From a virus, in IMG/VR virus record IMGVR_UViG_3300018080_000099, positions 64,001 to 128,000 of that record: a stretch of 64,000 bases of DNA; one strand, given 5' to 3'. Below are positions 50,015-63,730 of this stretch, piece by piece. The notes beneath the pieces are model-generated. The model was not told the DNA's origin. It did no database searches and was given only the letters and a program-made list of their open reading frames with translations. The translations under genes and the position numbers were made by a program. Position 1 is the stretch's first letter; each line of letters begins with the position of its first letter.

Positions 50015-50108
50015 TGGAGCACCCGGACGGATTCGAACCGCCGTTACAAGACTTACGTCGCCAGAGGGTTGCAACCTCCCGCCTGAAACCGGACTCGGCC
50101 ACGGGTGC
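50015..50108 (-). tRNA. tRNA-Cys(GCA) with a 20-nt extra variable arm; U73; CCA encoded
   Basis: acceptor GCACCCG / CGGGTGC, U73; anticodon arm GGAGG TTGCAAC CCTCT; variable arm GGCGACGTAAGTCTTGTAAC; T-arm GGCGG TTCGAAT CCGTC. Confidence 0.55.
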
Positions 50109-50116
50109 TTAATTCT

Positions 50117-50320
50117 TTAATTACTGCTCGATGAACTGTGTGACTTGAACAAGATTCCGCAAAGCATATTCAAACCCAGAGCTTGCAGGAATGTTATCTT
50201 TGTCAGTCCGAAAATGACGGGCATCAACCAGTTCCACAACAGCATTGTAGGTACTGCGAAAAGCAATGCCAATCCAACAATGAGTACAACAAGCAGCAAA
50301 ATCTTTGCCAACACTTCCAT
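50117..50320 (-). CDS. small hydrophobic membrane protein
   Basis: MEVLAKILLLVVLIVGLALLFAVPTMLLWNWLMPVIFGL. Confidence 0.35.
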   Translation of the reverse strand: MEVLAKILLLVVLIVGLALLFAVPTMLLWNWLMPVIFGLTKITFLQALGLNMLCGILFKSHSSSSSN

Positions 50321-50347
50321 ACATCAACTCCTGATAAAGGTTTTCAA

Positions 50348-50437
50348 TGGCTGAGGTGGTAGGATTCGAACCTACGTGTGACTTTAGTCAACCAGATTCA
50401 AAGTCTGGCGCCTTCGACCTGACTAGGCAACACCCCA
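50348..50437 (-). tRNA. tRNA-Gln(UUG) with a 16-nt extra variable arm; U1-A72 and G73 as in canonical tRNA-Gln
   Basis: acceptor TGGGGTG / CACCTCA, G73, CCA; anticodon arm CCAGA CTTTGAA TCTGG; variable arm TTGACTAAAGTCACAC; T-arm GTAGG TTCGAAT CCTAC. Confidence 0.6.
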
Positions 50438-50444
50438 GTATATT

Positions 50445-50521
50445 TGGTGCGGATGGCCGGATTCGAACCGGCGGTATCTTCGTTGGCAACGAAGTGCAAT
50501 TGGCCACTATGCGACATCCGC
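50445..50521 (-). tRNA. tRNA-Gly(GCC), CCA encoded
   Basis: anticodon arm CTTCG TTGCCAA CGAAG; T-arm GCCGG TTCGAAT CCGGC; A73. Confidence 0.8.
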
Positions 50522-50686
50522 AATATCTAAAAGCACAGTCCAGTTTTCTCTGACATATCTCAGTCAGACCACCGTAATTACCAAATTGGACCGGACGCTG
50601 TGGGACGCTTACATTGGTGGAAAATACCTTCCTTAATCCAATGTAGATAATTTTCCAGCGCGGCATTGCTGTGCTTCACAATCTTA

Positions 50687-50764
50687 TGGTAGGGATGGTC
50701 GGAATCGAACCGAACCTCTACTTGCTTATCAGACAAGCCTCCACAACCAGTTGAGTTCATCCCT
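50687..50764 (-). tRNA. tRNA-Ile(GAU), CCA encoded
   Basis: anticodon arm CTTGT CTGATAA GCAAG; acceptor AGGGATG / CATCCCT; A73. Confidence 0.7.
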
Positions 50765-50765
50765 A

Positions 50766-50843
50766 TGGTGCTCCGTACTGGATTCGAACCAGTGGTCTCC
50801 ACTACGTCAAAGTGGCGCGTTTGGCCATCTACGCTAACGGAGC
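50766..50843 (-). tRNA. tRNA-Val(GAC), CCA encoded
   Basis: anticodon arm CCACT TTGACGT AGTGG; T-arm ACTGG TTCGAAT CCAGT. Confidence 0.8.
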
Positions 50844-50844
50844 A

Positions 50845-50921
50845 TGGTGCCCGGTATAGGATTTGAACCTATGATATTCTGCTTGTAAGGCAGACGCCTT
50901 ATACCACTAGGCCAACCGGGC
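50845..50921 (-). tRNA. tRNA-Val(UAC), CCA encoded
   Basis: anticodon arm TCTGC CTTACAA GCAGA; T-arm ATAGG TTCAAAT CCTAT. Confidence 0.8.
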
Positions 50922-50964
50922 GATATTTAAAAATAACATCTTCTTAGGTTTTTGTCAAGTTTAC

Positions 50965-51264
50965 TTACTTGGTTGCCCTTAGCACTTTTTCGACATCATC
51001 CGTGTCGTAATCGTACAAGAACTCAATTTCCATAACCTGATTCTGCATGATGTTCGGCTTGAGTTCAATGGCTTTAATAAGCTCTTTGACAATCTCATAA
51101 GCATCTCCTGAATGGATAATACTATTCGGAACATGCTTCCTTAATCCTTGTTCATCATTGACAACAGCCATAGCGATTTGCTTTCTGACTGTATCATACT
51201 CGTCGTCACGAATTGCTACTCCACCCATTTTTTCATCCAGATACTTATTGTATTCTGTTGGCAT
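50965..51264 (-). CDS. hypothetical protein (the longer ORF-track call 50965..51714 runs through structured non-coding DNA)
   Basis: RBS AAGGAG plus ATG at 51264 (MPTEYNKYLDEK); upstream part of the long ORF contains orphan T-arm and hairpin elements. Confidence 0.45.
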   Translation of the reverse strand: MPTEYNKYLDEKMGGVAIRDDEYDTVRKQIAMAVVNDEQGLRKHVPNSIIHSGDAYEIVKELIKAIELKPNIMQNQVMEIEFLYDYDTDDVEKVLRATK

Positions 51265-51284
51265 ACTCAGCTCCTTGAAGTTCG

Positions 51285-51305
51285 GAGGGAAGGAATCGAA
51301 CCTTC
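51285..51305 (-). other. orphan tRNA T-arm-like element (GAAGG TTCGATT CCTTC) without a cloverleaf
   Basis: a perfect T-arm consensus on the minus strand, but no acceptor partner or anticodon arm could be folded. Confidence 0.4.
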
Positions 51306-51385
51306 GGGAAACGGGCAGTCCGACCAACTCCCACCCACGCATCGGGCCAAAGTCTCCCACATCCAATGTCCTCAAGGTATTTATA

Positions 51386-51601
51386 CTATTGTCGCCCCAC
51401 ATGTTCCCAATCAATGCCATCGGGAATCTTATCGGAGCGTTCAAGGATACCGGGCATTTTGTAGTAACATTCTTGATTCCGGTAAGGAGTTTTGTTGTAG
51501 CACAGATGGACTTTTTCGGATTCTGCTTTGGTGCTGTAAATGCTCCTTCTGTATTCACACTTAGCATTCGGCCCATGAAGTCCGCAGAAAAATATTTCCA
51601 T
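51386..51601 (-). CDS. small Cys-rich protein
   Basis: 71 aa, RBS AGGAG; CGLHGPNAKC. Confidence 0.4.
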   Translation of the reverse strand: MEIFFCGLHGPNAKCEYRRSIYSTKAESEKVHLCYNKTPYRNQECYYKMPGILERSDKIPDGIDWEHVGRQ

Positions 51602-51671
51602 GCTACAACACTCCTAAAAGGCAATAGAACAGGATAATATACCGCTTTCGCGGGTTGCCGCACCTTGCGGC

Positions 51672-62348: not shown

Positions 62349-62349
62349 A

Positions 62350-62435
62350 TGGTACAGCGGGTGAGATTTGAACTCACGTTGGCTTTACGCCCCTGCTTAT
62401 CAGACAGGTCTCTGTTACCATTCGAGTACCGCTGT
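62350..62435 (-). tRNA. tRNA-Ile(GAU) with a 14-nt extra variable arm (GGCGTAAAGCCAAC)
   Basis: acceptor ACAGCGG / CCGCTGT, A73, CCA; anticodon arm CCTGT CTGATAA GCAGG; T-arm GTGAG TTCAAAT CTCAC. Confidence 0.55.
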
Positions 62436-62448
62436 ATATTTAGACAAC

Positions 62449-62538
62449 TCAGGATGGAATATTTGTGTGGATTTGAACCACATAAATTGCTTAAAAGGCA
62501 ATTATTTTCCGTTAGGGTTTGCTGGACCCATCCTTCTG
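62449..62538. ncRNA. structured RNA element, family copy 3 (AGGATGG ... GTTTGCTGGAC CCATCCTTCTG), with a compensatory base-pair change
   Basis: terminal helix AGGATGG / CCATCCT (A-T replaced by G-C relative to copies 1 and 2); internal hairpin TGTGTGG ATTTGAA CCACATA. Confidence 0.5.
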
Positions 62539-62550
62539 TTGTTATTATCA

Positions 62551-62629
62551 TGGTCAGGAGGGTGGGATTCGAACCCACGTGAACTCGGCTCCAGACCGAG
62601 TGACTCAAGCCAGACTAGCCTACCCCCTG
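62551..62629 (-). tRNA. tRNA-Pro(UGG)-like variant with C33 and an extended D-loop
   Basis: C1-G72, A73, CCA; anticodon arm CTCGG TCTGGAG CCGAG. Confidence 0.5.
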
Positions 62630-62630
62630 A

Positions 62631-62718
62631 TGGTCTGGATGGAGGGATTTGAACCCCCGTTTCCTCAATGAGGACTCCGCCCCGAACGGAGTGGTCTACC
62701 AAGCTGACCCACATCCAG
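62631..62718 (-). tRNA. tRNA-Pro(CGG) with a 16-nt extra variable arm
   Basis: acceptor CTGGATG / CATCCAG, A73, CCA; anticodon arm CTCCG TTCGGGG CGGAG; variable arm TCCTCATTGAGGAAAC. Confidence 0.6.
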
Positions 62719-62768
62719 ATAATAACACTTTTTACTAACAGTAACATTGGGGATGTTACTATTGAAAT

Positions 62769-62846
62769 TTGGGGTGATAGAAGGGAGTCGAACCCTCACC
62801 TACTGATTCACAGTCAGTAATGCCACACCACTTACACCACTATCAC
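62769..62846 (-). tRNA. tRNA-His(GUG) with a G-1:C73 pair
   Basis: 5' extra G pairing with C73; anticodon arm ACTGA CTGTGAA TCAGT. Confidence 0.75.
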
Positions 62847-63059
62847 CATATAGACCGATACTTTTGAATCGCCTCGGTTCACCAGAAACTTCCTCTTGGA
62901 CAGCGATAAATTAATCGGGACTATCCTGCCGATTGAACGATAGGTTACTTAGTACTTTACTCTGAAAAAATCGCGCGCTTCTAACAGAGTGATTCAGTGT
63001 CGCGAACACCAAAACAACCTTTTACCCAGTAGGACTCGAACCTACATCTTTCCCTAACT

Positions 63060-63142
63060 TGGAGCACTAGGTGGGATTCGAACCCACGGTGATTATCTGA
63101 TTGGAAGTCAGACCCCTTCGACCGGACTCGGGACACTAGTGC
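63060..63142 (-). tRNA. tRNA-Gly(UCC), CCA encoded
   Basis: anticodon arm TCTGA CTTCCAA TCAGA; U73; 13-nt D-loop GAGTCCGGTCGAA. Confidence 0.65.
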
Positions 63143-63289
63143 TTGTGTTTGCGATATGGTACTAAAAGCGTACTATATCGCAACTGAAAATTTGGCGTGG
63201 TGATGAGGAAGTGAACCTCACATCTTCGGCTTATAATTAGGCGCGCACCTTTTGGCCGATATTCTACCAGTTGAACTACCTCCCAAAAT

Positions 63290-63380
63290 TGGCTGGCCGA
63301 GAGGGATTTGAACCCCCGTGTGAGCTTACGCTACGGCGGATTAACAGTCCGCTGCCTAAACCAGACTAGGCTATCGACCA
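63290..63380 (-). tRNA. tRNA-Asn(GUU) with an 18-nt extra variable arm
   Basis: U1-A72, G73, CCA; anticodon arm GCGGA CTGTTAA TCCGC (as in E. coli tRNA-Asn); variable arm CGTAGCGTAAGCTCACAC. Confidence 0.65.
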
Positions 63381-63487
63381 GTGTAAAGTGCAATAAGATG
63401 CACTATTATGTGTGTTAATGACAGAAACTGTCATTAATGCACATCATTATGTATCTAAAGTGCAATACATTGCACCTTTTGTTATCA

Positions 63488-63565
63488 TGGCTGGGGCAGA
63501 AGGATTTGAACCTTCGGTCTCCTGATTCAGAGTCAGGCGCTCTTGGCCAACTGAGCCATGCCCCA
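63488..63565 (-). tRNA. tRNA-Gln(CUG), canonical, CCA encoded
   Basis: U1-A72, G73; anticodon arm CCTGA CTCTGAA TCAGG. Confidence 0.8.
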
Positions 63566-63568
63566 ATA

Positions 63569-63644
63569 TGGTGCCACCGCGCGGAATTGAACCGCAGACA
63601 CCCTGCTCTTCAGGCAAGTGCTCTACCTACTGAGCTACAGTGGC
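63569..63644 (-). tRNA. tRNA-Phe(GAA), CCA encoded
   Basis: anticodon arm CTTGC CTGAAGA GCAGG; A73. Confidence 0.8.
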
Positions 63645-63647
63645 ATT

Positions 63648-63730
63648 TGGCAGGCCCGGAGGGATTCGAACCCCCATTGACTTTACGTCACGGTTTTGGA
63701 GACCGTTGCATCCCTGTCTGCCACGGACCT
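63648..63730 (-). tRNA. tRNA-Trp(CCA) with a 14-nt extra variable arm
   Basis: A1-U72, G73; anticodon arm ACGGT CTCCAAA ACCGT (as in E. coli tRNA-Trp); variable arm GACGTAAAGTCAAT. Confidence 0.65.

Follow-up and report, generated by a model that had tools for sequence, protein, structure and literature searches.

Cognate-looking class I tRNAs with an extra variable arm in the tRNA island of a large phage

In bacteria, a long variable arm is limited to the tRNAs for Ser, Leu, Tyr and Sec. To our knowledge, the known exceptions, allo-tRNAs and the nev-tRNAs of nematodes, are oddities that are mischarged or do not serve in translation. The viral DNA analysed here (positions 64,001 to 128,000 of IMG/VR record IMGVR_UViG_3300018080_000099, a stretch of 64,000 nt that we call the window, from a phage genome of roughly 264 kb) contains a tRNA island in which eight genes with anticodons for Cys, Gln, Met, Asp, Ile, Pro, Asn and Trp have such an arm. 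In this island it is found on tRNAs that look fully cognate in all other respects, and for five of them the island offers no other reader of their codons. The locus therefore raises the question of whether these class I tRNAs work with the amino acids that their anticodons specify, and what the arm is for. Our favoured reading, with a probability of about 0.6, is that the eight are working, cognately charged tRNAs with an extra arm under selection, and that the arm perhaps aids evasion of host defence.

All eight genes lie on the minus strand and were called by ARAGORN and, independently, by the Rfam model RF00005. The RF00005 scores were 45.5-60.9 bits (gathering score 29), inside the range of the ordinary tRNAs of the island (41-75 bits), and the matches spanned model positions 1-71. 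The ARAGORN coordinates were essentially those of the initial annotation, an earlier reading of the same DNA, with the Met gene at 53326-53409 instead of 53328-53409. In the covariance-model alignments, all insertions fell in the variable region, between model positions 45 and 46. None of the eight was placed in the D loop or the anticodon loop, as an intron-like or D-loop insertion might have been, and no anticodon was reassigned to Ser, Leu or Tyr; the anticodons remained GCA, UUG, CAU, GUC, GAU, CGG, GUU and CCA. The observation thus withstood the refuting outcomes that the initial annotation had named. The ARAGORN drawings and our own parse showed a 7-bp acceptor stem, a 5-bp T stem, a 5-bp anticodon stem and a 7-nt anticodon loop in each tRNA, together with D stems of 3-4 bp and standard T loops. 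At least six of the seven acceptor positions were paired in all eight, and CCA was encoded in every gene except that for Met. The variable region is 14 nt long in Ile and Trp, 15 nt in Met, 16 nt in Gln and Pro, 18 nt in Asp and Asn, and 20 nt in Cys. RNAfold predicted a hairpin for seven of these insertions, both folded alone and within the whole tRNA, and the exception was Asp. The proposal of hairpin-forming insertions of 14-20 nt in eight class I tRNAs thus held for the lengths and the site, but not for the Asp insertion, which stayed unfolded (0.0 kcal/mol). In the structural sense of class II (a variable region of more than 10 nt with a stem-loop), all eight have the length and seven the hairpin.

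The identity bases of each tRNA were judged against PMC9976931 and the E. coli identity sets. The discriminator bases and 1:72 pairs agreed with the initial annotation in our parse of all eight. tRNA-Cys(GCA) (50015..50108, 94 nt, 45.5 bits) has U73, a mismatch at 13:22 (G13:A22) and G15, and its 20-nt variable region (50043-50062) reads GGC[GAC-GUAA-GUC]UUGUAAC, where brackets here and below enclose the hairpin. tRNA-Gln(UUG) (50348..50437, 90 nt, 57.5 bits) has U1-A72, G2-C71, G73 and G10, with the 16-nt variable region U[UGAC-UAAA-GUCA]CAC (50376-50391). In tRNA-Met(CAU) (53326..53409, 84 nt, 52.2 bits), the identity feature is A73, U1 and U72 are mismatched, which the covariance model marks as a non-standard 1:72 pair, and the 15-nt variable region (53352-53366) is [UCCC-AUUU-GGGA]GAC. 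tRNA-Asp(GUC) (54314..54403, 90 nt, 60.9 bits) shows the identity features G73, G2-C71 and G10 as well as G1-C72 and A15/U48, and its 18-nt variable region (54342-54359) is AGACGUAUACCGCAGAGU, for which no stable hairpin was predicted.

In tRNA-Ile(GAU) (62350..62435, 86 nt, 53.5 bits), the identity features A73, A37 and A38 are present, and C4-G69, U12-A23 and C29-G41 are missing. Its first pair is A1-U72, its 3-bp D stem CUC/GAG is accompanied by G13:A22, and the 14-nt variable region (62378-62391) is [GGC-GUAAA-GCC]AAC. tRNA-Pro(CGG) (62631..62718, 88 nt, 50.0 bits) has C1-G72, A73, G37 and G15/C48 and the 16-nt variable region [UCCUC-AUU-GAGGA]AAC (62659-62674). tRNA-Asn(GUU) (63290..63380, 91 nt, 54.7 bits) has G73 as its identity feature and U1-A72 as its first pair, with the 18-nt variable region CGU[AGC-GUAA-GCU]CACAC (63318-63335). 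Finally, tRNA-Trp(CCA) (63648..63730, 83 nt, 47.3 bits) has A1-U72, G2-C71, G3-C70 and G73, and its 14-nt variable region (63676-63689) is [GAC-GUAAA-GUC]AAU. The Levitt pair 15/48 covaries in six of the eight (A15/U48 in Asp; G15/C48 in Cys, Gln, Met, Pro and Asn), with Ile and Trp as exceptions. In these six, the variable region thus ends with a base that tracks position 15, as the Levitt pair would require.

The anticodons GCA, GUU, CCA, UUG and CGG are carried in the island solely by long-arm genes, and the Cys, Asn and Trp genes are its sole tRNAs for these amino acids. The initial annotation had listed canonical short-arm copies for Asp, Ile, Met, Pro and Gln. Copies with the same anticodon exist for Asp, Ile and Met only, whereas the other Gln and Pro tRNAs of the island read CUG and UGG. 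The short-arm tRNA-Asp(GUC) (55067..55145, minus strand) has a variable loop of 5 nt, and the short-arm tRNA-Ile(GAU) (50687..50764, minus strand) one of 6 nt. The latter has A1-U72, the CUC/GAG D stem and a near-identical anticodon stem in common with the long-arm Ile gene, which therefore looks like its paralogue.

We compared the arm geometry across the phage tRNAs collected for this analysis. The arms of phage Ser tRNAs have stems of 5-7 bp with mostly 1 unpaired nt on each side; Leu arms have stems of 4-6 bp with 0 unpaired nt on the 5' and 1 nt on the 3' side; and Tyr arms have stems of about 3 bp with 1 nt on the 5' and 3 nt on the 3' side. The eight arms of the window have stems of 3-5 bp, except for Asp without a stable stem, with 0-3 unpaired nt on the 5' and at least 3 nt on the 3' side. 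Their loops comprise 3-5 nt (GUAA in Cys and Asn, GUAAA in Ile and Trp, UAAA in Gln), and in six of the eight the 3'-tail is exactly 3 nt and ends with a pyrimidine, which takes the place of position 48. None of the eight matches the long helical arm of Ser tRNAs, their stems being 0-5 bp and their tails at least 3 nt. As far as predicted folds can tell, the arm in seven of the eight is built like that of bacterial class II tRNA-Tyr (about 1 unpaired base, a stem of about 3 bp, a small loop and, in front of the T stem, a tail of 3 nt) and not like a Ser-type arm. Equivalently, it looks like a hairpin dropped into a class I variable loop whose last three bases were retained. Compared with tRNA-Tyr, however, the eight are Cys, Gln, Met, Asp, Ile, Pro, Asn and Trp tRNAs with non-Tyr anticodons and discriminators.

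Near-identical arms were observed on different isotypes, namely UUGACUAAAGUCACAC in the window Gln (50376-50391), UUGACGAAAGUCACAC in a Cys tRNA of another locus (L286; L numbers denote the loci fetched for this analysis) and UUGACGUAAAGUCACAUC in a Lys(CUU) tRNA (L065). The first two differ in 1 of 16 bases, and the window Gln and the Lys tRNA have both the anticodon stem CCAGA/UCUGG and the T stem GUAGG/CCUAC in common. We rejected these shared sequences as a demonstration that arms are transferred as modules, given that arms of 12-18 nt, often with GNRA loops, allow convergence. The shared arms hint at common ancestry or sequence constraint, and they are too short for proof of either.

The identity of the tRNA bodies was the next part of the question. 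The initial annotation had argued from the discriminator base and the first pair that the eight are genuine isoacceptors and not Ser bodies. However, G73 is present in all four Ser tRNAs of the phage, as it is in long-arm Gln, Asp, Asn and Trp, and cannot separate these four from Ser. Of the Ser-type combination of G73, G1-C72 and G2-C71, Asp has all three, whereas Gln, Asn and Trp have G73 with U1-A72 or A1-U72, and G73 is missing in Cys (U73) and in Met, Ile and Pro (A73). Since the discriminator argument was weak for Gln, Asp, Asn and Trp, we classified the bodies directly with a position-wise naive Bayes classifier. Its training set comprised 601 canonical phage tRNAs of the window and the fetched loci, stripped of the anticodon and variable region (leave-one-out accuracy of 73-75%). 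The amino acid of the anticodon ranked first for Cys, Gln, Met, Asp, Pro and Trp, for Pro by a wide margin. The long-arm Asn scored about equally as Asn and Gln, which share U1-A72 and G73, and the long-arm Ile was ambiguous between Leu, Ile and Glu, marginally best as Leu. Ser was top-ranked for none of the eight, and seven of them do not match a Leu body with a Leu discriminator, the exception being Ile with its A73 and about equal scores. The claim of cognate, non-Ser bodies is thus backed by six cognate classifications, the absence of any Ser classification and an arm geometry unlike Ser; its weak spots are the Ser-like acceptor end of Asp and the Ile body, which the classifier left ambiguous though its D and anticodon stems match those of the short-arm Ile.

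The long-arm Met looks initiator-like, and the other seven look like elongators. It shows U1xU72, G2-C71, C3-G70, G4-C69 and A11:U24, and has two of the three initiator G-C pairs in the anticodon stem (G30-C40 and G31-C39). Initiator-like long-arm tRNA(CAU) genes recur in six other loci (L158, L077, L034, L295, L091 and L096). The acceptor stems of this family, including the window gene at 53326-53409, start with (U/C)GCGG; several members have a 1:72 mismatch, and several combine a GAG/CUC D stem with A11:U24.

These features suggest that the cognate synthetases of the host would charge the eight tRNAs and that normal codons would be decoded. Cognate charging and use in translation are favoured by complete identity sets, by an arm unlike that of Ser tRNAs and by the CCA that seven of the genes encode. 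Both are favoured further because five anticodons occur on long-arm genes only, because long-arm Trp is usually the sole Trp gene of its cluster, as described below, and because engineered arm-bearing tRNAs work in E. coli. In the engineered case, variable-arm tRNAs with Ala, Tyr or His identity carry a variable-arm hairpin, are rejected by seryl-tRNA synthetase (SerRS) and translate in E. coli (PMC7590224); they are synthetic and built on an allo-tRNA chassis, whereas the phage eight are natural genes with 7/5 bodies (a 7-bp acceptor and a 5-bp T stem).

We searched for related genes in IMG/VR with a pattern consisting of the Trp anticodon loop, then 21-30 nt, then a common T-arm sequence, and verified the matches by ARAGORN. 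At least 105 long-arm Trp(CCA) genes were found (105 of the first 120 pattern matches listed). Among the matches listed, only 6 short Trp tRNAs were present in the flanks of these loci, which suggests that the long-arm Trp gene is normally the only one in its phage cluster. An equivalent Asp pattern gave 28 matches in IMG/VR and no long-arm Asp, so the chance background is about 25 pattern matches. In the much larger collection of cellular genomes (596 Gb), only 17 of 120 among the matches listed to the Trp pattern were true cases, several of them in dense phage-like tRNA clusters, which points to an enrichment in viruses; the idea that the arm mimics a host feature was rejected, since most of these cellular matches arose by chance. 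The flanks of the viral Trp matches hold long-arm Lys, His, Cys, Met, Ile(UAU), Arg, Asn, Thr, Val, Gln, Pro, Gly, Glu and Phe tRNAs. Six viral contigs (L005, L009, L041, L119, L120 and L326) contain a conserved 94-nt tRNA-Ile(UAU) that has A73 and an arm of 23-24 nt (…UCUCCAGAUUAGAGAG…) and is reminiscent of the nematode nev-tRNA-Ile(UAU). Solitary CCA-anticodon tRNAs on apparently Ser-type bodies (GG start, arms of 17-20 nt) were seen in cellular contigs (L189, L201, L206, L223, L229 and L236) from bacterial genomes and metagenome-assembled genomes, e.g. Pelagibius sp. 7325, and are apparently distinct from the phage Trp genes.

A less biased sample was obtained from a scan anchored on canonical tRNA-Phe, with a long arm defined as a variable region of at least 10 nt. 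Here 21 of 798 unique tRNAs with class I anticodons (2.6%) had a long arm, including 4 of 48 Trp tRNAs, and at least one long-arm tRNA was found in 16 of 98 tRNA-bearing loci. The window has 8 long-arm genes among 36 tRNAs with class I anticodons, which is more than expected by chance from this background (binomial P = 3.6e-6). A long-arm Trp(CCA) whose loop differs was also present in a related phage of 202 kb, in which the radical-SAM protein is 48% identical. When the Trp tRNA was compared with GenBank phages by BLAST, only partial matches were obtained. Those in Enterococcus phages were true tRNA-Tyr genes and were set aside as irrelevant, and one in the cultured Xanthomonas phage XacN1 (AP018399) led to the tRNA island of that phage. 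In its locus L124 (AP018399: 30715-54744), we found long-arm Gly(UCC) (8339-8424), Thr(UGU) (11855-11945), Cys (14488-14576) and Asn (15265-15353) tRNAs of 86-91 nt. Each arm has a stem of at least 3 bp and a 3'-tail, and the loops of Gly and Cys are GAAA. In the same locus ARAGORN called a transfer-messenger RNA-like gene at 6487-6907 with the tag ANANTFDYALAA, which is absent from the annotation table of the record. We found no description of long-arm class I tRNAs in phages in the full-text literature, including the XacN1 genome paper, the global viral tRNA survey, PMC7609411 and PMC9976931, a coverage that was incomplete, so that an earlier mention is possible; the XacN1 paper and the survey do not mention the variable region. 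Long-arm class I tRNAs thus recur in many phages and have apparently not been described so far.

The initial annotation had proposed a check for covariation of the arm in related phages. For fifteen long-arm Trp genes that share an E. coli-like Trp anticodon stem, RNAalifold predicted the arm helix, with 7 and 6 double-sided changes at two inner pairs. The stem cells were paired in 95.6% of cases compared with 63.8% in shuffled arms, and the covariation score was 0.867 compared with 0.207; none of 500 shuffles reached either value. When the pairing partner was slid by 1-3 columns, 53% at most were paired. The stem has therefore been kept while its sequence changed, and the helix of the arm, once present, would be maintained by selection.

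The long-arm Trp genes of other phages are on at least three body types, i.e., genuine Trp, Tyr-like and Leu-like. The window Trp belongs to those with a genuine Trp body and a hairpin, as do genes in five other loci (L065, L103, L113, L117 and L001). In the Tyr-like genes, positions 8-9 are UU, the D arm is GCCGAGUGGUUAAAGGC and the extra arm reads C[CUC-GAAA-GAG]UUC. The history of an arm added to a class I tRNA thus fits the window Trp, but only part of the Trp genes elsewhere, where a class II ancestor may have passed on its arm before a switch of identity.

The opposite change was also observed. In the Phe-anchored sample, 29 of 67 unique tRNA-Leu genes were short-arm, with a total length of 72-80 nt and a variable loop of 3-9 nt, while the Leu-type D arm and A73 were kept; a short loop was found in only 1 of 52 Ser and 1 of 34 Tyr tRNAs. 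Examples of short-arm Leu within L246-L365 are those of L290, L279, L299 and L307. Tyrosyl-tRNA synthetase (TyrRS) is among the enzymes that use the arm. The counts match published rules, by which the E. coli leucyl-tRNA synthetase (LeuRS) ignores the arm and arm size is the major determinant for SerRS (PMC9976931). Gain and loss of the arm in phage tRNAs therefore seem free where the synthetase takes no notice of it, which supports cognate charging of the long-arm class I tRNAs. By this reading the arm would be evolutionarily mobile where synthetases are indifferent to it, gained on many class I isoacceptors, often lost from Leu and almost never from Ser or Tyr. A possible intermediate was found in the window itself. 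tRNA-Gly(UCC) (63060..63142, minus strand, 83 nt, U73) combines a CCCGAGUCCGGUCGAAGGG-type D arm of 20 nt with an unstructured variable loop of 8 nt, UAAUCACC, whose end resembles the tails of the long arms. Full long-arm Gly(UCC) tRNAs occur in XacN1 and L077, and the window gene may carry a decayed or nascent arm.

What the arm might be good for is a more speculative matter. The initial annotation had suggested a decoy, a means of evasion or a recognition handle, and the sole support for such a role is a published precedent. The closest system in concept is the tRNA-Tyr of phages T5 and SP15, in which the lengthened variable loop of a phage tRNA decides the action of a host nuclease (PMC12673091, PMC13096335). 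The longer loop is required to resist or neutralise the PtuAB nuclease of Retron-Eco7 (PMC12673091), and Septu cuts tRNA-Tyr within its variable loop (PMC13096335). By analogy, the arm may change the tRNA core and the surface of the variable loop, so that host defence proteins that cut or modify tRNA would no longer fit while translation would go on unaffected. Defence evasion as the benefit of the arm is speculative. The retention of Asp(GUC) and Ile(GAU) in a long and a short version would be in line with a backup role. A stronger version, which we regard as rather doubtful, is that at least 16 class I specificities, including the initiator-like Met, have repeatedly been given a class II shape by a Tyr-type arm as a device of phage-host conflict. 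Such tRNAs would stay chargeable and usable by the ribosome but would be hidden from tRNA-cleaving or tRNA-modifying enzymes of the host, or from the phage's own weapons against host tRNA. If this were true, the arm-bearing tRNAs would be a distinct virus-specific class and an example of a general, shape-based tRNA orthogonality.

The most serious alternative is that the arm is a tolerated insertion without function: phage tRNA genes evolve fast, the variable region would be the only site at which added bases cause little damage, and hairpins would arise and persist by drift, with selection only for a neat fold that leaves the cloverleaf undisturbed. We consider this possible, though on balance unlikely. 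Gain and loss occur exactly where synthetases are indifferent, as the counts of short-arm Leu, Ser and Tyr tRNAs show, the long form is a minority, the isotypes concerned are many and follow no obvious pattern, the insertion in Asp lacks structure, the 8-nt loop of Gly(UCC) looks like a remnant, and no partner protein came up in the search described below. A neutral arm is harder to reconcile with the frequency of long-arm Trp, which is on several body types and usually the sole Trp tRNA of its cluster among the matches listed. The same holds for the common architecture across isotypes and phages (short stem, commonly a GNRA loop, 3-nt tail), for the accumulation of eight such genes in one phage compared with the sampled background, and for the retention of Asp and Ile in both long and short versions.

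Several points weigh against a functional, cognate arm. Neutral tolerance explains most of the data equally well: covariation of the stem is expected for an adaptive and for a merely tolerated arm alike, and a purely neutral model also predicts the pattern of gain and loss. Known anticodon nucleases read the anticodon loop, which the extra arm would not protect. A Tyr-like arm could even be a liability, because the two defence systems known to affect this part of a tRNA, the variable region, are directed at the arm-bearing tRNA-Tyr. The search for a partner protein, a tblastn of 218 window open reading frames (ORFs) against long-arm and control loci, returned only HNH endonucleases and small unknown ORFs, in both sets. 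The classifier is about 75% accurate, its training set includes the phage's own short-arm copies and only five canonical Trp tRNAs, and it left Ile and Asn ambiguous. Furthermore, the acceptor end of the long-arm Asp equals that of the phage Ser tRNAs (G1-C72, G2-C71, A3-U70 and G73). Because of this end, its helix-free 18-nt insertion and the lack of any relative in our search, the long-arm Asp may be a different case or a decaying gene.

That the eight are not used in translation, being pseudogenes or tRNA-shaped decoys that soak up host nucleases or tRNA-binding proteins, appears improbable. Such a role would suit the unstructured arm of Asp and the same-anticodon short-arm copies of Asp and Ile, and there is a precedent in the overexpressed tRNA-Tyr that neutralises PtuAB toxicity (PMC12673091). 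A tRNA-like RNA without a D arm (59235-59317) also lies in the same island. However, the eight have intact cloverleaves and cognate identity bases, seven of them encode CCA, and their Rfam scores are inside the range of the island. Moreover, five anticodons are carried by long-arm genes only, and the long-arm Trp is normally the sole Trp gene of other phage clusters (among the matches listed).

Mischarging, in which the arm with G73 or A73 would recruit SerRS, LeuRS or TyrRS and codons would be partly misread as with allo-tRNAs or nev-tRNAs, is very improbable in our view. It is suggested by the G73 shared with all four phage Ser tRNAs, by the Ser-like acceptor end of Asp, by the Ile tRNA with its A73, 3-bp D stem with G13:A22 and marginally best score as Leu, and by long-arm Trp genes elsewhere on Tyr-like, Leu-like or Ser-like bodies. 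In addition, nematode arm-bearing tRNAs with Gly or Ile anticodons have been described as decoding an alternative code for leucine (PMC3333845). However, the classifier assigned six of the eight bodies to the cognate amino acid and none to Ser, and Gln, Asn and Trp lack G1-C72, which is conserved in bacterial tRNA-Ser (PMC9976931). The stems of 3-5 bp with long 3'-tails are unlike phage Ser arms, the Asp insertion is free of a helix, and the G34 and U35 read by TyrRS are missing here. Moreover, five of the tRNAs are sole readers of their codons in the island, so mischarging would harm the phage's own proteins. Allo-tRNAs and selC* tRNA-Cys (PMC5389517) also combine a long arm with non-Ser anticodons, and some of them occur in phages and metagenomic tRNA clusters. 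However, allo-tRNAs have 8/4 or 9/3 bodies, longer anticodon and D stems and Ser identity (Mukai et al. 2017), whereas the phage eight have 5-bp anticodon stems and short arms; because they are 7/5, and not 8/4 or 9/3, they are not allo-tRNAs. Neither are they tRNA-Sec-like. The nev-tRNAs are eukaryotic, whereas most of the phage eight have bodies and identity bases that match the anticodon; apart perhaps from Ile, they are not Leu bodies of the nev-tRNA kind.

The idea that the insertion is cut out like an intron and the halves rejoined, perhaps by the phage's RtcB ligase (30860-32209), as in some archaeal class I tRNAs that variable-arm introns make look class II (e.g. the 18-nt insertion in Thermofilum pendens tRNA-Gly; PMC4810241), is scarcely credible: archaeal arm introns are spliced by an endonuclease at a bulge-helix-bulge motif, which the simple hairpins predicted here lack, so the eight are not introns of that style; 14-20 nt are far too short for self-splicing; no splicing endonuclease was found among 40 window proteins scanned; RtcB was present in a single locus of the long-arm Trp sample and in a single one of the Phe-anchored control; and if the arm is a structural part of the mature tRNA, selection for a compact stem and a tail of 3 nt is in keeping with it.

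ARAGORN found 47 tRNA genes in the window, 46 of them on the minus strand at 47442-63912 and one on the plus strand elsewhere; RF00005 at its gathering score called 42 of these 47. The island (47442..63912, minus strand) comprises these 46 ARAGORN tRNAs and one called only by Rfam, and it runs past the window end, with one further tRNA(CAU) in L002. Inside it lie genes for PTH2 (56533-57039, minus strand), Apyc1 (52500-53312) and a B12/radical-SAM protein (57812-59131). At least five HNH endonuclease genes are in the neighbourhood, five of them in or beside the island on the minus strand (43237-43878, 51833-52246, 55616-56209, 57302-57679 and 60925-61536). Other viral contigs often have HNH homologues in their tRNA clusters, with or without long-arm tRNAs. 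Outside the island, a SpoU-family methylase (29836-30465, plus strand) lies directly upstream of RtcB (plus strand), and a DUF2828/DUF7788 RNA-binding protein of PHROG 850 is encoded at 36988-38460 on the minus strand. With PTH2, these three form a set of RNA repair and modification genes on the phage. Further neighbours are a RimK-like ATP-grasp protein, three DNA methylases and several radical-SAM proteins. No close cultured relative was found in GenBank, where megablast of the island gave short tRNA matches and tblastn of two proteins of the island or window nothing useful. A single-protein scan with the radical-SAM protein confirmed no relatives in IMG/VR, and an exact-sequence look-up of PTH2 returned no record.

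Two further tRNA genes of the window are unusual. The tRNA-like gene at 59235-59317 (minus strand) was called by Rfam (36.8 bits) and not by ARAGORN, and lies 3 nt downstream of a tRNA(CAU) (59321-59395). It has a normal acceptor stem and T arm, an encoded CCA and the anticodon loop CUUCUAC (UCU, Arg), with 5 nt in place of the D arm and a 23-nt 'variable' region that contains the D-loop-like GUAACUGGAG. The plus-strand tRNA(CUA) (34202-34278) is of the amber-suppressor type, labelled 'Pyl' by ARAGORN, with a 7-nt variable loop and no encoded CCA. It is located 13 kb from the island on the other strand and adjoins the region of RtcB and the RNA-binding protein; XacN1 has two tRNA(CUA) genes. 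Amber recoding is not evident in the window, where TAG ends 11 of 73 long ORFs.

Should the eight tRNAs function as they seem to, an extra arm on almost any tRNA would be acceptable to most synthetases, to EF-Tu and to the ribosome, and the natural gain and loss of the arm would track which synthetases read it. The arm-bearing genes would then also provide natural designs for orthogonal or tagged tRNAs. Furthermore, the variable region would be a candidate site of an arms race between phage tRNAs and tRNA-targeting defence, for which XacN1 and Xanthomonas would offer a tractable system.

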